Shown: positions 8,578-20,593, numbered from the stretch's first letter. The stretch: DNA of 64,000 bases from Promethearchaeia archaeon (GCA_029856045.1 JAHQWG010000012.1:64001-128000); one strand, 5' to 3'. Notes: generated by a model from the sequence alone, not told the origin. Numbers and translations: made by a program.

Positions 8578-9408
8578 TTAGCCCATTTCTTTAAGAAATT
8601 TATCTATATAATTATTTATCTCCTTATAGATTTGTGATGGTGCTAAATGACCAGCAAACTCTATTGCAATCAATTCAGAATTGGGAATTTTTTCAGCTAA
8701 TCTTTCCGAAAAAGTGAGAGGGCTGTAATTATCCAGCATTCCACCCACGATCAACGTGGGACATTTAATATCAGAAGGATCAAAACATTTCGCTTCATCA
8801 ACCATATTGAATATTTCCTCTTCGATGATTTCCTCTAATTCAGGATCACTATATTCTTGGTTTTCGGATGCCTCTTTAAGGGCTAACTTTATAAATGGAA
8901 TTGTACGGTCTAGAACGTCATCAAGAGAATTCTCTGCAATTTTTAGAAAGTTCATACGAATATTATACGGCAAAATGTTCCAAAATGACCCTCGGATATC
9001 ATTATCAATCATTAAGTCCCCAGAATTCAGGAGAATTAAGAATTTAACTTTATCGGGATGTTTTTTAGTTAGGAGTTGTGCAATCATACCTCCAAGAAGA
9101 CTATGAGATAGAATTCCAAATTTTTCATTAATTTTTAGATGTTTCAATAGATCTTCTATATCCCTTAGATATGTCTCTCTTAAATGATCCTTTAATTTTA
9201 TACTAATAGGCTTAAAACTCCTTCCAAGACCAATTGCATCAATTGGAACTAATCTATATTTTTTTTTCTTTAGAAATGAGATTTGATGTTTGAAGAAAAT
9301 AACAGAAGAAGCTTGCCCGTGTAAAAGGATAATGGGGAAATTCTTAGGATCTTCATTGATATCCTCATAATATATGCTTAGAGAATCCTTATTTCGAAAG
9401 AATGGCAT
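8578..9408 (-). CDS. Alpha/beta fold hydrolase
   Basis: LLHG, DAIGLGRS, SHSLLGG, PTLIVGG..D, AGH. Confidence 0.85.
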   Translation of the reverse strand: MPFFRNKDSLSIYYEDINEDPKNFPIILLHGQASSVIFFKHQISFLKKKKYRLVPIDAIGLGRSFKPISIKLKDHLRETYLRDIEDLLKHLKINEKFGILSHSLLGGMIAQLLTKKHPDKVKFLILLNSGDLMIDNDIRGSFWNILPYNIRMNFLKIAENSLDDVLDRTIPFIKLALKEASENQEYSDPELEEIIEEEIFNMVDEAKCFDPSDIKCPTLIVGGMLDNYSPLTFSERLAEKIPNSELIAIEFAGHLAPSQIYKEINNYIDKFLKEMG

Positions 9409-9653: not shown

Positions 9654-11204
9654 TTAGAAATTTTCATAGCGCAAAGAGCGAGATATTATATCCTTCCAAC
9701 AGGAATATTTCTTTTTACGTTCTTCTTCCGTCATCTGAGGTTTATAGGTTTTTTCTACTTTTCTAATCTGTAAGAGCTCATCTTCAGACTTCCAAAACCC
9801 CACTGCTAGCCCAGCCATAAAAACAGCACCTAATGCAGTAGTTTCAGGGTTACCTGTATGTTCAACATCTATTCCCAAGATATCACTTAAAAATTGAAGG
9901 AGAAATTTATTTTGAGATACTCCACCATCAGCTTTTATTTTTTCTATTTGAATTTTTGTGTCTATAATAATGCCTTCAACTATATCTTTTATCCTAAGGC
10001 AAATTCCTTCTAAAATTGCTCTTATTATATGTTCTTTTTTAGTATCTAAGTCTACGCCAAAAAGATTTCCTCGTGTGCTAGAATCCCAATATGGAAATGA
10101 AAGGCCAGTTGTAAATGTTGGTAAAAAATAAACGCCATCTGTTGAATCCACACTTAATGCCATTTTTTCCGTTTCGGAGGGATCATTATATAGTCCCAGT
10201 TCATTCTGCAACCAATCTATGATGTTACCGGCATTATGAGACATTCCTTCCGTCATATAAGTGGTTTGCTCATTGATATGCCAAGCAATTAATGGGTATA
10301 ATTTTCTTTTTGAAGCATAACATTTTTGTCCTGTATTAAGGTCTACAAATGAGCCCGTACCATTTGTAACTTTCATTGATCCTTCGTTAAAACAACATTG
10401 TCCGAATAAACTTGCCATTTGATCTCCAATTAAACATGTAATGGGTATTTCGCCGCCAAAAATTTTTGCTTTTCCGAAATCTCCTCTAGTATCTCTAATT
10501 TCTGGTAATATGTATTCTGGAATTCCCATTGCTTTTAAATATATCGAATTGTATTCTAATTTAAATGGATCAAACAAACCGGTATGAGCATTTGAATAAT
10601 CAGTAGCAAAAACCCTTCCTTCAGTTAAATTCCATAATATCCAAGTATCGATTGTCCCCCATACTACGCTAGTATTGGGGTCGCTGATTAATTCTTTAAC
10701 CTCCGGATGAGTTTCAAGAAAATATCCTGTTCTCATGGATGTATGATCAGTAGTGAATTTAATGGTTGAAAATGTTAATAATTTTATATTACGCGTAAAT
10801 AAGTAGATAAATTTTGTTATACCTCTTAAAAATCTAAAATAGAAACTTTTATTTTTTTTCTCAGTATATAAGGCACATCGTTTATCTTGCCAAGTGATAA
10901 TATTAGAATAAATTTTTCCAGTATTTTTATCCCAGAAAAGAAAGGATGCTCTTTGAGTAGTAATACCAATTGCTGCTATATTCTCGGGACTTAAATTATT
11001 TGATTTTATAACTTCTTCCATAACTTGTCTGCTTAATTCCCAGATTTCTTTTGGATCTTGCTCTACTTGACCCTTTTCTTCCATAATATATTTAGGTTTT
11101 CTTTTGGCTTGGGCGAAAATTTCACCATTTTTATCATAAATGAAAGCTTTAATGTTAGTTGTCCCAATATCAAGGCATAAAATATATGTATCCATTTTTA
11201 TCAC
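9654..11204 (-). CDS. glpK: FGGY-family glycerol kinase, GK5-like
   Basis: DIGTT, EQDP, ITTQR, WQDKR, GTIDTW, GDQMASLFG, TNGTGSF, DGGVSQN, ETTALGA; amphipathic insertion after WQDKR. Confidence 0.85.
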   Translation of the reverse strand: MIKMDTYILCLDIGTTNIKAFIYDKNGEIFAQAKRKPKYIMEEKGQVEQDPKEIWELSRQVMEEVIKSNNLSPENIAAIGITTQRASFLFWDKNTGKIYSNIITWQDKRCALYTEKKNKSFYFRFLRGITKFIYLFTRNIKLLTFSTIKFTTDHTSMRTGYFLETHPEVKELISDPNTSVVWGTIDTWILWNLTEGRVFATDYSNAHTGLFDPFKLEYNSIYLKAMGIPEYILPEIRDTRGDFGKAKIFGGEIPITCLIGDQMASLFGQCCFNEGSMKVTNGTGSFVDLNTGQKCYASKRKLYPLIAWHINEQTTYMTEGMSHNAGNIIDWLQNELGLYNDPSETEKMALSVDSTDGVYFLPTFTTGLSFPYWDSSTRGNLFGVDLDTKKEHIIRAILEGICLRIKDIVEGIIIDTKIQIEKIKADGGVSQNKFLLQFLSDILGIDVEHTGNPETTALGAVFMAGLAVGFWKSEDELLQIRKVEKTYKPQMTEEERKKKYSCWKDIISRSLRYENF

Positions 11205-11227
11205 ATTTTTATATTTTCTTTTGAAAT

Positions 11228-12514
11228 TTATATAACTTTAGCAATTAATTCAGTTAAGTCTATTATTTTAATTTTCTTTTTATTATTATCTTCAATTCCT
11301 TTTTCTAATCCTAATTCACAAAGCGGGCAAGCCGTAACGATTATATTTGCACCTGTTTCAATTAATTCATTAACTCTATTTTGCGAGATTTTTTCCGCTA
11401 AATCATTATTTGCCCAATGGAGCGTACCGCTATACCCACAGCAATGGGTATATTTTTCATTACAAATTGGCTCTAATAGATTTAATCCCGGAATTTTCTT
11501 CAAAACTTCTCTTGGCTCGGAAATAACATTTAAATTTCTTGACATTAAGCATGGATCATGATAGACAACGTTTTTGAATTCTTCAGGTATTTGGGTTTTA
11601 AGAATGAGTTTATTTTCCTCAATCAATTGTTTAAATAATTGTAAGATATGAATCACTTTTACTTTTAATTTAACACCAATCTTTTCATATCGATTAAGTA
11701 AAGTATCAGCACAACCTGGACAATCAGTCACAACTAGTTTTGCTCCAGAACTCGTGATTAAATCTATATTTTGCTTGGCATATTCTTTAGCTAAATCCAA
11801 ATGTCGAGTATTAAATAATGGGGCACCACAACACCATCTTTTATCTAAGTTAGTTGAGAATTTAATACCAGCCTTCTTCAATATTTCAATATTAGCTTTA
11901 ACAACTTCTGGAAATTTCATCATTTCGCATCCAATATAATAAAAAACATCATCATTTCCATCAGATTCGATATTTTCAATGCCCTTCTCTTCATAAGTCT
12001 TGAATATATTTGTGTCTTCTATAGTATGAGTTTTATTTAATTTTTCTATTTGTTCTTTTATATAACTTGGAGTCAAACCTTTATCATTAATATCATCTCG
12101 AACCGTTTCAAGCAATGAAACTACTGAAAAATCGAATGGGCACCAAATTTTACAGTTTTCGCAATTACAGCATTCATACATTAAATTAATAAAGTCTTTA
12201 TTTTCTTCTTTAGAAGGATCTATTTTGCCGACTGAAAGATAATAGCCAATTAGAGATTTATAAGCGGGTGCCATACTTTCAGTTTTTGCTCCTTGGAGGG
12301 AATTGCAATCAAATCTGCACATTTTAAGACATAACATGCAATTAATCAAATTTTTTACATCAGCTTTATATTCTCCTTGAGGATAAAAATTTTTCTTTTT
12401 CAACCTAAAATTCTTTAAAACTATTCTTTTAACATCACGGTCAGCATTTGCTATTATAGGAATCATCCATTTATACTTTTTTAATTGTTCCAAGATACTC
12501 ATTTTATTTAGCAC
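11228..12514 (-). CDS. GlpC/HdrD-like Fe-S oxidoreductase (ferredoxin plus two CCG domains)
   Basis: CMLCLKMC, CCNCENC..WCP, YYIGC, CCG, CPGC, YHDPC, CCG, TACPLC. Confidence 0.9.
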   Translation of the reverse strand: MLNKMSILEQLKKYKWMIPIIANADRDVKRIVLKNFRLKKKNFYPQGEYKADVKNLINCMLCLKMCRFDCNSLQGAKTESMAPAYKSLIGYYLSVGKIDPSKEENKDFINLMYECCNCENCKIWCPFDFSVVSLLETVRDDINDKGLTPSYIKEQIEKLNKTHTIEDTNIFKTYEEKGIENIESDGNDDVFYYIGCEMMKFPEVVKANIEILKKAGIKFSTNLDKRWCCGAPLFNTRHLDLAKEYAKQNIDLITSSGAKLVVTDCPGCADTLLNRYEKIGVKLKVKVIHILQLFKQLIEENKLILKTQIPEEFKNVVYHDPCLMSRNLNVISEPREVLKKIPGLNLLEPICNEKYTHCCGYSGTLHWANNDLAEKISQNRVNELIETGANIIVTACPLCELGLEKGIEDNNKKKIKIIDLTELIAKVI

Positions 12515-13982
12515 CTCCCTTTTCAGGGGGAAAATAAGTTTTTCCCGGATTTAAAATATTATTTGGATCAAGTAAGTTTTTTATATCTATTAGTGATCTT
12601 AAAGCTTTCCCCCATTCTTTTTCCATCCAACGTGCTCTATTGATACCAATCCCATGATGATGAGCAATAGATCCTCCAGCTTTAACACATGCATCTATTA
12701 CAGCATCCCAACATTCTTGATAAAACTCAAAATCAGATTTTCCTCCAGTTGCAACCCCACTAAATGTAAAATAAAAACCAACCCCATTAGGATAAAAATG
12801 TGAGGCATGAGCAGTTATATGAAGATTACCTTTAACTTTCTTAACTGAATCAAGAACTAAATGATACAATTCTGCAGCATGTTCCCACATAACAGATACT
12901 TCAATAGTATCAAATACAATTTTATATGGCGGACCAAATGATGTTTCTGTTACCCTAAATCTGGTTTCAAACCAGTGTTCTACTGGTTCTTCTCCACAAT
13001 TAGCACCCTTATTATCTTCACATTTTTCTCTTGTAATAATTCCTTCTAAATTTACAAGTCTTTCATTTCCTTCACAAACAAAAACAGCCATAACTTTATC
13101 TTTCGCTTCTTTTATTTGAGGGAAATGTCTACTTGTTTCTGAGGTATCGTAGATGCGTATAACAGCTGGATATATTTGATTCCTTAAAATATTTCTGATA
13201 GCTTCTAATGAATCTTCGATAGTTGGAAAAGCGTAAGAGATTAATTCTCTTTTTTCTGGATATGGCCATATTTTTAAAGTTGCTTTAGTAACTATCCCTA
13301 ATGTGCCTTCTCCTCCAATAAATAATTTATCAAATTGTGGTCCAGTTGCTGCTCTTATTATTGTTTTTAGTTTAATGATTTCACCTTGTGGTAATATGAT
13401 TTCTAAACCTAAGACTATATCTTCTATTTTTCCATATTTTGTGGAAAATTGACCAGCTGCTCTATGGGCAATCCATCCACCAACAGAAGACATATAAATG
13501 GATTGGGGAATATGTCCACAGGTATAGCCTTTAGCATTAAGATATCTCTCTAAATTCATCCCATTCATACCTGCTTGAACTGTAACAGTCAAATCTTTAT
13601 CATTAATCTCCAATATTTTATTGAACTTTTTCATGTCAATAATGATTCCACCATATATTGGTATCGCACCTCCTACAACTCCTGAACCCTCGCCGTAAGG
13701 GATTATTGGAATTTTTTCCTCATTCGCTAATTTTAAAATCTTAGATATTTGATCATTATTTTCAGGCCATGTTATTAAGTCGGGTAACGCCGCTAATTGT
13801 CCTTGGATTCTCCAATTTAAAGTAATTAGCGTAGAATCTTTAGAATAAGCAATTAAATCTATTTCTCTGGTTGAAACATTTTTTTCCCCCAAAATAACCT
13901 TTAATTTAGAAAGAATCTTTTCTTTATCTTTAATCTCACATCTATTATCTTTAAAAATTAAACCAAATTTTTCAAGAGCCAT
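12504..13982 (-). CDS. VAO/PCMH-family FAD oxidoreductase, alkyl-dihydroxyacetonephosphate synthase-like
   Basis: PYGEGSGVVGG, GHIPQS, GGWIAHRAAGQFSTKYGKIED, GEGTLG, HASHFY, HHHGIG, LDPNNILNPGK. Confidence 0.85.
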   Translation of the reverse strand: MALEKFGLIFKDNRCEIKDKEKILSKLKVILGEKNVSTREIDLIAYSKDSTLITLNWRIQGQLAALPDLITWPENNDQISKILKLANEEKIPIIPYGEGSGVVGGAIPIYGGIIIDMKKFNKILEINDKDLTVTVQAGMNGMNLERYLNAKGYTCGHIPQSIYMSSVGGWIAHRAAGQFSTKYGKIEDIVLGLEIILPQGEIIKLKTIIRAATGPQFDKLFIGGEGTLGIVTKATLKIWPYPEKRELISYAFPTIEDSLEAIRNILRNQIYPAVIRIYDTSETSRHFPQIKEAKDKVMAVFVCEGNERLVNLEGIITREKCEDNKGANCGEEPVEHWFETRFRVTETSFGPPYKIVFDTIEVSVMWEHAAELYHLVLDSVKKVKGNLHITAHASHFYPNGVGFYFTFSGVATGGKSDFEFYQECWDAVIDACVKAGGSIAHHHGIGINRARWMEKEWGKALRSLIDIKNLLDPNNILNPGKTYFPPEKGGAK

Positions 13983-17824: not shown

Positions 17825-18742
17825 ATGACTGAAAACGTTGAAGATTTGATTTCAAACAATAATAAAGATGAAATAGAAAAACAAGAAATTAAACTTCAAT
17901 TTCATTTTTATCTCACATTTTTTGCTTTTATATATTTAGGATCATATTTCTTACCTGGTATAATTTTAATGTTATTTATATTGCTATATTTTGTACCATA
18001 CTTTTTACAGACCACAAATTTTGTTTCTCTTTTTATAGAATTAAACCCCTTACTTGCTTTAACATTAATGCCTTTAATTATTATCAGTTGTTATTTAATT
18101 CATTTATTTTTTATAGGTTTATTAACTCGATGGTGCTGGAGTTTTACTGAAAAGAAGTCTCCAACAAAGAATGGGATTATTCCACGAAATGTTCCTAGCG
18201 ATACTTTAAACTATTACCATATTCGTTCATTTGTAATTAAATATGGGAAATTTGTATTCACTAAAGGTCTTTTTCCTTGGTTACTGAATTGGTATTATAA
18301 TTTCGTTGGATCAAATAAAATTGGAAAAGGTACAACAATTGAAGAGGAAATTGTTGGTGATAAATTTATTGATGTAGGTGAAGATTGTTATATTGGAGTT
18401 AATTCAGCAGTATGTTCACACACTGTCGAGGGAACTTTTGGTCGGATACCTTATTTTGAAATAAAACTTGGAGATAATGTTACTTGTACGGCATTTAACA
18501 TAGTCGGTCCTGGATGTGATATCCATGAGAACTCTTATTTATTGCCGTTAGGCTCTACCGGTAAAAACCAAACTACCAAGGGGAATAGTTATTATTTTGG
18601 AATACCTATGCGCAAGATTTTCACGAAAAAGATAATAGAATATTTAAAGATCTCTCAAGAAGATTTAGAAAAAGATAAAGAGTTAAGAAATAGACAAAAA
18701 AAACTTAAGGAAAAAATAGAGAGTGATGTATTATTAAAATAA
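17825..18742 (+). CDS. Membrane-anchored left-handed beta-helix (hexapeptide) acyltransferase-like protein 1
   Basis: Two hydrophobic segments, then KIGKGT, VGEDCYIG, CSHTVEG, LGDNV, YFGIP. Confidence 0.8.
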   Translation: MTENVEDLISNNNKDEIEKQEIKLQFHFYLTFFAFIYLGSYFLPGIILMLFILLYFVPYFLQTTNFVSLFIELNPLLALTLMPLIIISCYLIHLFFIGLLTRWCWSFTEKKSPTKNGIIPRNVPSDTLNYYHIRSFVIKYGKFVFTKGLFPWLLNWYYNFVGSNKIGKGTTIEEEIVGDKFIDVGEDCYIGVNSAVCSHTVEGTFGRIPYFEIKLGDNVTCTAFNIVGPGCDIHENSYLLPLGSTGKNQTTKGNSYYFGIPMRKIFTKKIIEYLKISQEDLEKDKELRNRQKKLKEKIESDVLLK

Positions 18743-19662
18743 TTGAAGTTAATAATAATACAAGTGAAGGAGAAAATAATGAATTAAGTATATCGGAAAA
18801 TAATGAAAAGCATGATTTAATTATTGATTTTACTACAAGTAATGCTATTAGCAGAGTTGATATTAAGTTTTTAGTAATATATATTCCGATTTTTTGGTTT
18901 AGCGGTATATTAGTTGCGATATACTGGTATCAATACACTAAAAATCTCCCTTCAATTCAAGAGAACTGGATTTTCTGGCTTTTTCCGATTTTATATCTGC
19001 CTATTGCCATATTGTCCATGCTTTTCATTTTTATTTTTGGTTGTGTTTTTTTTAGTAAATTATTTTTAATAATTATTAATTTAATTCACAAACCAAGAGA
19101 GGGAGTATTTAGAACGGATTTAGGAGATAAGAATTTTGAGTTTTGGTGTCTTCGAACTAAATTAAAAAAATTAGTTATATGGTTACTGAGAACATGTCCT
19201 CTTCCTTGGATCGATATTATAGCTTTTAGATGGTTTGGAGTAAAAATGGATTTTTCAAGTCATCTTCTAGATTCTTGGTTTGATATTGAATTTATTAAAT
19301 TAGGACGTAAAGTAATGGTTGGACAGGGCTCAGTTGTTATGAGTTCAATGATAGTTGGTAAATATTTAATTATTAAACGAATTATTCTTGATGATTACAC
19401 AATAATAGGAGGAATGGCTTGTGTTTCACCAGGAACAATTACAGGTAAAGATTCACTTTTGGCTGCTATTTCTTCTACGATTTACAATCAAGTGCTTGAA
19501 TCAGAATGGGTTTATTTTGGAATTCCATGCATTAAATTTAAACCAAATAAGTTTACATTTAAAAAAAAAATGACTAAAAGGAGTGTGGATGAGGAGGAAG
19601 CGATTAATGTTGAACAAGAAATTAATATTGAAGATGATAAGAAAGAAAAATATAACTTGTAA
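18733..19662 (+). CDS. Membrane-anchored left-handed beta-helix protein 2 (start uncertain; frame extends ~95 codons upstream of the called TTG at 19012)
   Basis: Frame open from 18727 and encodes a TM segment (KFLVIYIPIFWFSGILVAIYW); KPREGVF, FGVKM, LGRKVMVGQGS, YFGIP. Confidence 0.7.
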   Translation: MKIIEVNNNTSEGENNELSISENNEKHDLIIDFTTSNAISRVDIKFLVIYIPIFWFSGILVAIYWYQYTKNLPSIQENWIFWLFPILYLPIAILSMLFIFIFGCVFFSKLFLIIINLIHKPREGVFRTDLGDKNFEFWCLRTKLKKLVIWLLRTCPLPWIDIIAFRWFGVKMDFSSHLLDSWFDIEFIKLGRKVMVGQGSVVMSSMIVGKYLIIKRIILDDYTIIGGMACVSPGTITGKDSLLAAISSTIYNQVLESEWVYFGIPCIKFKPNKFTFKKKMTKRSVDEEEAINVEQEINIEDDKKEKYNL

Positions 19663-19678
19663 TTTGAGGGGTTAAAAA

Positions 19679-20593
19679 ATGTCAGTACCTACAAGCATGC
19701 GGGTTGGACCATTTACCCCAACTATTTTAGTTAAAAAGAAATATATAATCTTTTATATATTTCTCATCTGGATTTCAATGATCCCTATTTTATTAGAATT
19801 TTGGTTATATTGGCAATGTTTTTGGGATGCAATAAAACCATTATACTTCTATTTTTTTCTCCCGCTTCTCTGTTTTGTTATGTATATAACTGCAGTATTA
19901 ACATCTGTTCTTTTTGCAAAATTAATATTAGTTATTATAAAGGCAATTCTTAAACCAAAAGAAGGTATTTTTCTTAGAGACGCATCAGATAAAGATTATC
20001 GCTATTGGAGTTTAAGAAATACAGTTAAAAAATGGCCAATTTGGCTTTCACACAAATTTCCGTTTCCATTCCTTGATAATATTTGTTTTAAAGTTTTTGG
20101 AGTTAAAACTAAATTTTCAAATTCGTTGTTCGAGGGATGGGTAGATTGTGAATTCATTGAATTTGGAAAAAATGTAATTATAGGACAAGGAAGCATCATT
20201 CAATCCGCTTGTATTGTTGGAAAGTTGTTAATTATAAAAAAAACAATTATTGAAGATAATGTAAGAATTGGAGCACACGCTATATGTATGCCTGGCACTC
20301 ATATTAGAAAAAATAGTGTGTTAGCAGCAAATTCTGTTGCAACAGTTGGACAAGAACTTGAAGAAGGATGGATTTATGTTGGAGTTCCTGCAACAAAATA
20401 TAAAAAGAATAGATTCTTCGAAGATGGTTTAGAAAATGTACTTGGAGATGTAAAAGATGTTGAAAATTTAAGAAAAACGTATGAGAATTTATATATTAAA
20501 CGTTATGATAAACATCTTACTTATAAAGAGAGAAAAGAACTTAAAGAAGAAAGGAGAGTAGAAGAAAAAATAAGATTGGAGCAGGGTGTATAA
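19679..20593 (+). CDS. Membrane-anchored left-handed beta-helix protein 3
   Basis: Two TM segments, KPKEGIF, FGVKT, FGKNVIIGQGS, IEDNVRIG, YVGVPA. Confidence 0.8.
   Translation: MSVPTSMRVGPFTPTILVKKKYIIFYIFLIWISMIPILLEFWLYWQCFWDAIKPLYFYFFLPLLCFVMYITAVLTSVLFAKLILVIIKAILKPKEGIFLRDASDKDYRYWSLRNTVKKWPIWLSHKFPFPFLDNICFKVFGVKTKFSNSLFEGWVDCEFIEFGKNVIIGQGSIIQSACIVGKLLIIKKTIIEDNVRIGAHAICMPGTHIRKNSVLAANSVATVGQELEEGWIYVGVPATKYKKNRFFEDGLENVLGDVKDVENLRKTYENLYIKRYDKHLTYKERKELKEERRVEEKIRLEQGV

Follow-up and report, generated by a model that had tools for sequence, protein, structure and literature searches.

Introduction

Alkyl-dihydroxyacetone phosphate (alkyl-DHAP) synthase, known as AGPS or ADPS (EC 2.5.1.26; PDB 2uuu and 4bby; MXAN_1676), has shorter prokaryotic relatives, among them E. 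coli YgcU and Archaeoglobus AF0868. In this study we describe a unit of three genes, encoding a short-type flavoprotein of the AGPS family, an Fe–S protein with CCG domains and an FGGY kinase of the GK5 type, in a 64,000-nucleotide stretch of DNA from a Promethearchaeia archaeon (GCA_029856045.1, JAHQWG010000012.1:64001-128000; hereafter the window). The three protein families are all known; operons related to the unit (ygc and PA3026-24) have been described but not characterised.

The E. coli ygc cluster, with YgcU and YgcE, encodes a flavoprotein of the short type that is 30% identical to that of the window and has HxSHxY and HHHG motifs, together with electron carriers and a nearby FGGY kinase. 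It differs in carrying ETF/FixCX genes, an SDR and MFS transporters, whereas the window unit has a CCG Fe–S subunit and a GK5-type kinase. AF0868, a further short-type AGPS-family flavoprotein, has been called a putative D-lactate dehydrogenase (PMC3949148). The P. aeruginosa genes PA3026-PA3025-PA3024, which belong to the GliR regulon, likewise comprise an FAD oxidoreductase, a GlpD homologue and an FGGY kinase, but no CCG subunit has been described and the dehydrogenase lies inside the operon (PMC8151288). The FAD oxidoreductase was proposed to act on acyl- or alkyl-glycerone phosphate in a biosynthetic direction; deletion gave no phenotype, the function is untested, and a phospholipase C and a lipid kinase are co-regulated with the operon (PMC8151288). 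Finally, GlcD/GlcF and the D-lactate and D-2-hydroxyglutarate dehydrogenases with CCG partners also couple a VAO flavoprotein to a ferredoxin/CCG relay. Our literature searches found no functional study on YgcU, AF0868 or Asgard AGPS-like genes, no function established for any prokaryotic short-type AGPS relative, no paper on this three-gene unit or on GK5 in Asgard archaea, and no anaerobic alkylglycerol-cleaving enzyme.

What is new here is the distinction between short and long AGPS types, the near-exclusive exchange of the kinase in place, and a housekeeping glycerol route located elsewhere in the genome. The unit is a compact, expressible test of what short-type AGPS relatives do.

Results and Discussion

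We tentatively favor a reading of the unit as a catabolic redox module for a C1 O-substituted glycerol, likely lipid-derived, such as a monoalkyl or monoacyl glycerol. The general scheme behind it, in which a phosphorylated C1-substituted glycerol is the substrate of a catabolic dehydrogenase, is likely. This reading starts from observed gene content, active-site residues and GK5 membership of the kinase, from the conservation and fusion of the flavoprotein–CCG pair, and from the kinase swap. The initial annotation had proposed an ether-glycerolipid pathway joining AGPS and GK5 in one Asgard operon, an interpretation that is partly supported.

The three co-oriented genes are intact (Table 1), which confirms the observation of the unit. 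Their Pfam domains are FAD_binding_4 and FAD-oxidase_C in the flavoprotein, two CCG domains and a weak Fer4 in the Fe–S protein, and FGGY_N and FGGY_C in the kinase. The nearest relatives by name are from Promethearchaeota/Lokiarchaeia, and the Asgard assignment of the unit therefore holds. The 11-bp overlap and 23-bp gap reported earlier follow from starting each downstream gene at its first GTG, and the first GTG of the CCG gene sits within a GGAGGTG motif. The ATG starts in Table 1, which are probably the real ones, would instead leave gaps of 1 and 32 bp and no overlap, and give the CCG protein the length of most family orthologues. The position of the GGAGGTG motif suggests that translation of the CCG gene may be coupled to that of the flavoprotein. 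A promoter and terminator scan of the locus, designed for bacteria, gave matches at chance level.

Table 1. Features of the three-gene unit and its downstream neighbor in the window.
Feature	Coordinates	Strand	Remarks
VAO-family flavoprotein, AGPS/YgcU family, short type	12504..13982	(-)	492 aa; R276, Y404 and H441-H443 match AGPS catalytic residues
GGAGGTG, Shine-Dalgarno-like motif	12512..12518	(-)	inside 3' end of flavoprotein gene, upstream of CCG ATG 12502
Fe–S (CCG) subunit	11228..12502	(-)	424 aa from ATG 12502; 428 aa from GTG 12514 (open reading frame 11228-12514)
GK5-type FGGY kinase	9654..11204	(-)	516 aa from GTG 11204; probably 513 aa from ATG 11195
Kinase basic amphipathic helical segment, residues 121-146	10767..10844	(-)	same length as eukaryotic GK5 segment
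Alpha/beta hydrolase	8578..9408	(-)	Ser103-Asp226-His254 triad; 245 bp downstream of kinase

A short-type AGPS relative

The flavoprotein has a VAO fold with an FAD domain according to Pfam, the structure model and the fold search. The GHxPQS, GGW..R..G...YG.IED and HHHGIG motifs that had placed it in the AGPS branch are present and nearly invariant in relatives. AGPS is its best PDB sequence match (E 1e-63) and its lowest-rmsd (root-mean-square deviation) fold match (2.1 Å over 465 residues, 28% structural identity). R276, Y404 and H441-H443 align with R352, Y508 and the His triad of Dictyostelium AGPS; R352, Y508 and R447 all fit once author numbering is taken to differ from chain numbering by a constant 3. 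In guinea-pig AGPS we take the equivalents of Arg352, Tyr508 and Arg447 to be Arg419, Tyr578 and Arg515, with residue roles that are presumed beyond the PDB titles. R352, Y508 and R447 have been shown to be important in the Dictyostelium enzyme (PMC3509576). In the alignment, Arg447 is without counterpart, with Thr/Glu standing there in the flavoprotein, and the ~20-aa amphipathic cap segment at the AGPS tunnel entrance is absent. The corresponding segment, D279-G305, has 27 aa, compared with ~50 in Dictyostelium AGPS, 25 in E. coli YgcU and 47-98 in long prokaryotic forms. A conserved R341 lies near the missing position and might partly substitute.

The catalytic constellation of AGPS is thus retained, but not membership in the AGPS branch proper. 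Judged by its HxSHxY and HHHG motifs, its short cap, and the FGGY kinase and electron carrier in its cluster, the flavoprotein is of the short YgcU/AF0868 type. A quick tree of prokaryotic sequences, which held no eukaryotic or myxobacterial AGPS, grouped it with YgcU (97) and apart from the long forms L181/L182, and a 2026 paper on plasmalogen origin states that AGPS carries too little phylogenetic signal. Unlike D-hydroxy-acid dehydrogenases of the GlcD/GlcF kind, it lacks the GDGNxH and EHG metal motifs, having HASHFY and HHHG, and scores far below the family cut-off (TIGR00387, GlcD: 236.8 against 567.9). The fold search was a near-tie (D-lactate dehydrogenase Z 42.4, AGPS Z 41.4) that does not separate the families.

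A long AGPS-like paralogue of 545 aa is found in another Asgard family (L182:5785-9213 in G026, where it adjoins a GlpD-like gene, and L181:5523-7151 in G086). Being colinear end to end with 2uuu and 4bby and retaining Arg447/Arg515 and the amphipathic segment (47 aa in the region matching D279-G305), it exemplifies a truly AGPS-like archaeal protein and is a better AGPS candidate than the window flavoprotein. Tandem double AGPS-like proteins of 900-1000 aa, and flavoprotein fusions to a PfkB kinase or HAD phosphatase, were also seen (P0358, P0409, P0470; P0415; P0478).

A dedicated Fe–S partner

The CCG protein contains basic N-terminal helices, two ferredoxin-type Cys clusters and two CCG domains. 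Its earlier annotation as electron relay of the FAD enzyme is supported. The two genes are adjacent in 44 of 45 Asgard loci (13/13 in the family to which the window belongs, hereafter the window family, and 31/32 from 12 other family codes), a linkage far beyond chance, and they are fused in Bacillota. The predicted flavoprotein–CCG complex scored 0.93 against 0.00 for the best control; three runs shared at least 95% of contacts, with a partner pLDDT of at least 89. The mark set for such complexes was reached by 58 of 80 solved pairs and 2 of 110 mismatched pairs, counts that are only roughly valid for these alignments, and the score may owe something to likeness with known flavoprotein/Fe–S pairs. 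In the model, ferredoxin Cys 57-69 of the CCG protein face flavoprotein residues 284-285 and 342-355, and it is at these two places that the flavoprotein differs from AGPS. Adjacency, fusion and the predicted complex together support the CCG protein as the electron partner of the flavoprotein. The idea that it is just GlpC was rejected on account of the fusion, the complex model and the separate GlpC beside GlpAB: where GlpAB is adjacent, a second CCG gene lies with it, and the window protein scores 65.5 against a cut-off of 279.9 for TIGR03379 (GlpC).

The AGPS reaction is redox-neutral (PMC3509576), so that a dedicated Fe–S relay points to net oxidation by the flavoprotein and not to AGPS exchange. 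This bears directly on the synthesis of ether glycerolipids, in which the flavoprotein would function as an AGPS and replace the acyl group of acyl-DHAP by an alkyl group. The sequence and fold matches to AGPS and the retained catalytic Arg, Tyr and His triad would suit such a role, as would PlsC-type acyltransferases in the genome and a divergent acyltransferase that adjoins the unit in one relative. We nevertheless consider it very improbable, as a redox-neutral exchange needs no Fe–S partner, Arg447 and the amphipathic segment are absent, and the genes around it are for a kinase and for catabolic dehydrogenases. None of the neighborhoods seen held a FAR or GNPAT gene, unlike MXAN_1676-1675. 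A FAR search of the genome returned 12 generic SDR-type matches, which do not bear on the question. The unit gives no evidence of an AGPS origin in Asgard archaea, nor of eukaryote-type ether lipids being made there.

A GK5-type kinase

Several features identify the kinase, at the level of its sequence, as GK5-type and not GlpK. It scores under the NCBIfam GlpK cut-offs (NF000756, 466.6 against 498; TIGR01311, 452 against 590.35), and its top named eukaryotic matches are GK5 from Acanthamoeba and Mytilus, ahead of GlpK. The GlpK specificity signature is R83, E84, Y135, D245 and F270 (PMC3245297). Three of these five residues are kept (R85, D261 and F286), as is D12, whereas E84 and Y135 are replaced by A86 and D153, a loss common to the whole GK5 group. 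The segment from W103 to Y135 has 49 aa in the window kinase and 33 in GlpK. The ~25-aa insertion reported before therefore needs correction: the amphipathic stretch is ~25 aa long, but the net insertion is 16 aa by alignment. Metazoan GK5 does have an equivalent, as stated in the initial annotation: all eukaryotic rows (amoebozoan, Capsaspora, sponge, mollusc, amphioxus, fish and gecko) have a segment of the same 49 aa.

Phylogeny agrees with this assignment. In a tree built without the insertion columns, the GK5-like clade was recovered at 99/96, and eukaryotic GK5 (100/99) fell together with the window kinase inside a group (100/96) whose remaining members were Asgard proteins, unnamed metagenomic rows and a few spirochaetes. 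Forms with 55-59-aa segments, from other Asgard archaea, Thermoplasmatota and bacteria, branched earlier. Forcing the window clade with GlpK was rejected by the approximately unbiased (AU) test (p-AU 0.0056). Some Asgard copies are named "glycerol kinase 5" by NCBI. This tree would allow eukaryotic GK5 to have arisen in Asgard archaea, though it samples matches to two queries and leaves the branching within the 100/96 group without resolution. With eukaryotic GK5 among mostly Asgard proteins, the unit provides a prokaryotic handle on the GK5 substrate. The window kinase shares with eukaryotic GK5 the loss of E84, Y135 and R188 and 39-42% identity; it differs in lying in an operon where an unrelated kinase can replace it, while animal GK5 is stand-alone and found mainly in skin. 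GK5-type kinases of Spirochaetales (P0060, P0062, P0063, P0081) are sister to the window clade (100/100) and were possibly transferred from Lokiarchaeia; the one Spirochaetales locus that was read (L201) had no FAD/CCG pair.

The insertion contains the most amphipathic 18-mer of the kinase (moment 0.83; residues 121-138, shuffle p=0.0014), with a net charge of +8 over the segment, and is helical in the structure model (H121-137 and H140-146). The mean moment was 0.60-0.63 in 88 GK5-type sequences and 0.36 in GlpK-length ones. It is reasonable to think that the kinase may lean on the membrane through this helix.

The kinase slot is swappable

In the window family, the usual gene after CCG is not GK5-type. 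It encodes an LsrK/XylB-like FGGY kinase that shares only 22-25% identity with the window kinase; its segment is shortened to 16-20 aa and the amphipathic helix is missing. Both kinases occupy the same flavoprotein-CCG-kinase-hydrolase-MazG-purC block. Among 91 family genomes, which are kin and whose counts are not independent, 56 have the short LsrK/XylB-like type, 22 the GK5 type and 2 both. The flavoproteins are 67-76% identical between the two kinase sets, and kinase type changes at least 5 times on the flavoprotein tree. The evidence accordingly does not support a special AGPS–GK5 pairing, since most family genomes hold an unrelated, non-amphipathic kinase beside a ~70% identical flavoprotein; the FAD–CCG pair is what the synteny comparison showed to be conserved, with a variable kinase partner. 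Yet the GK5-type kinase also pairs with the flavoprotein in distant Asgard families and in Thermoplasmatota, so this pairing is old. The shared slot is most simply explained if the two kinases supply one and the same product or similar ones. As two unrelated kinases feed the same flavoprotein, the substrate they share should identify the pathway.

Two genomes look like replacement in progress: G174 (L008:1980-6757) has both kinase types in tandem, and G194 (L209), from a genus that otherwise uses the short type, carries the GK5 type in this position. At L208:3467-14293 (G185:C202), four tandem short slot kinases and two flavoprotein copies suggest diversification over related substrates. A sulfonate or phosphate as C1 group was considered and found unsupported, position 135 being Arg in the short kinases and Asp in the GK5 type. 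The kinase swap also ruled out the argument that the GK5 insertion proves a lipid substrate.

The swap is one reason to consider a small soluble substrate (a tetritol, a pentitol, or glycerol with a polar C1 group) handled by the same logic and the same dehydrogenase, with the GK5 helix merely anchoring the kinase near a membrane-facing Fe–S complex. This is possible, though on the unlikely side. The flavoprotein is of the short YgcU type without the lipid gate segment, and amino-sugar genes lie upstream in the window family. The genes that surround bacterial relatives are those of sugar clusters (ETF in E. coli ygc; sugar ABC, glycerol dehydrogenase, SDR and SIS genes), and PfkB or HAD fusions also occur. 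Those sugar-cluster enzymes are, however, only 30-37% identical, no sugar transporter was recognised in window-family operons, conservation of the 49-aa basic amphipathic segment extends from archaea to vertebrates, and GK5-type genes are repeatedly found among lipid genes.

Glycerol dehydrogenases and a separate glycerol route

That the unit is Asgard-specific is not supported: similar operons are widespread, with versions in Thermoplasmatota, Bacillota, Pseudomonas and E. coli. Outside the window family, the pair has a GlpA gene no more than 6 kb away at 19 of 32 loci, and wherever the ABC set is complete this GlpA comes with GlpB and a GlpC of its own; GlpA is also found in operons with the pair in Thermoplasmatota and Bacillota. 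The relatives in Microbacterium, Novosphingobium and P. aeruginosa have GlpD-like genes with them, and in other bacteria the flavoprotein is paired with an SDR or glycerol dehydrogenase plus a kinase. Both kinds of gene set would lead to a ketone phosphate that resembles DHAP and is substituted at C1, which is the class of ligand that AGPS binds.

The window genome has two unlinked GlpA/GlpD genes (C54:35293-36774 and C51:1290-2975) and another kinase (L215:4743-7183; C27:360632-362179 in this genome) that carries the full R83/E84/Y135/D245/F270 signature and is 35% identical to E. coli GlpK. This kinase gene is divergent from an adjoining glycerophosphodiesterase gene, has an orthologue in 85 of 91 family genomes, and probably encodes the real glycerol kinase of these archaea. 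One GlpA is present in 87 of the 91. Both are near-universal in the family, including the genus without the operon, and plain glycerol is thus already served elsewhere in the genome. Every partner kinase aligned, from several lineages, is without the GlpK E84.

Plain glycerol is an improbable substrate of the unit. In that case the kinase would make glycerol phosphate, and the FAD/CCG pair would be a non-GlpA dehydrogenase of glycerol 3-phosphate or sn-glycerol-1-phosphate yielding DHAP. Points in favor of a plain-glycerol route are the lack of GlpA in the unit of the window family, the resemblance of CCG to GlpC/GlcF, and the fold tie between D-lactate dehydrogenase and AGPS. Glycosidases that could release free glycerol flank two GK5-type genes, and mouse GK5 reportedly phosphorylates glycerol. 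Against this, GlpABC or GlpA beside the pair in the 19 other loci would be redundant, and the window genome already encodes a kinase of canonical signature along with its two GlpA/GlpD genes. In addition, the unit's kinase lacks two of the five GlpK signature residues, and the EHG metal-binding motif is missing.

A proposed catabolic pathway

A C1-substituted, possibly lipid-linked, glycerol is supported as the leading substrate class, and we infer substrate, direction and chemistry of the module as follows. The GK5-type kinase would phosphorylate the free primary hydroxyl. A GlpA/GlpD-type dehydrogenase, missing from the initial annotation and placed between kinase and flavoprotein by the gene neighborhoods, would then oxidise C2 to give a 1-O-substituted DHAP, a known AGPS ligand class; many relatives carry the gene for such a dehydrogenase next to the pair, and the window genome has it at other places. 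The flavoprotein could next use its Tyr base to form a C1 carbanion and a flavin-N5 adduct, expelling the C1 substituent. The adduct would end with water and not with fatty alcohol, yielding an alcohol or acid, a C1-oxidised triose phosphate and reduced FAD, which the bound Fe–S/CCG subunit would re-oxidise. Hydrolysis of an N5 adduct is established chemistry in nitroalkane oxidase, and may be used in this flavoprotein.

The hints of lipids come from several contexts taken together: the GK5 helix, two Thermoplasmatota operons that begin with an MMPL transporter gene, another GK5-type gene surrounded by SCP2, acyl-CoA dehydrogenases, Fe-ADH and AOR, thiolase-type genes adjoining others, and the phospholipase C and lipid kinase co-regulated with PA3026-24. 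A mouse lipid quantitative trait locus near Gk5 includes an ether phosphatidylethanolamine, which is only suggestive (PMC13750656). The earlier idea of a lipid-linked glycerol that is oxidised, exchanged or cleaved is supported in its substrate class, its GK5-type kinase and its basic amphipathic helix, but not in ether synthesis. A bolder version, which we regard as doubtful, is that monoalkylglycerols undergo oxygen-independent ether cleavage by oxidative AGPS chemistry via Fe–S, and that GK5 descends from an Asgard kinase and still acts on lipid-linked glycerol. Monoalkylglycerols of bacterial, eukaryotic or archaeal origin would all be usable because C2 oxidation erases chirality.

A number of observations weigh against the lipid-derived substrate or the scheme itself. 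The flavoprotein lacks the amphipathic segment and the Arg447 equivalent of AGPS, and no short-type relative with a measured substrate appeared in the literature found. Only the helix-free kinase is present in 54 of 91 family genomes, where it fills the slot in the loci examined, and the presence of two unrelated kinases in one slot limits what can be concluded on the substrate from the GK5 helix alone. Bacterial short-type relatives lie among sugar transporters, SDRs and sugar-phosphate isomerases, with one PfkB fusion. GlpA/GlpD is adjacent in 0 of 13 window-family loci, and the second GlpD candidate is absent from 5 operon-bearing genomes that are 92-100% complete. Its co-distribution with the operon gave no signal (5 joint absences against ~3.5 expected); operon and second GlpD-like gene are both missing from one genus (g3; 4 genomes, one event). 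Finally, a preprint reports ACAD10 as the animal alkylglycerol kinase, with salvage blocked when it is lost (PMC13596139), which weakens the case for GK5 as such an enzyme in animals, where it is not the main one.

Neighboring genes

The alpha/beta hydrolase downstream of the kinase is a usual neighbor in the family but is missing from this place in a same-genus genome, and is thus not a fixed member of the unit. Directly upstream of the flavoprotein, most family members have a 492-aa gene (L152:3655-5133; own orthologue C41:14096-15568) with no Pfam or NCBIfam match and a weak Atlas lead (score under 0.9) to prenyltransferase alpha/alpha toroids. In family f7 (L176-L180, L194-L196), the GlpA beside the pair carries SGxKY in place of the HGGLRY of GlpD, a hint that its substrate may be altered, and a radical SAM (MSMEG_0568-like) gene follows CCG. 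A sulfatase-family gene, or one to two genes for ~770-aa membrane-anchored proteins, lies between CCG and kinase at L206:7691-9184, L207:7519-9012 and L203-L205. Elsewhere in the window (17825-20593), three consecutive plus-strand genes encode membrane proteins with hexapeptide-repeat-like acetyltransferase tails.

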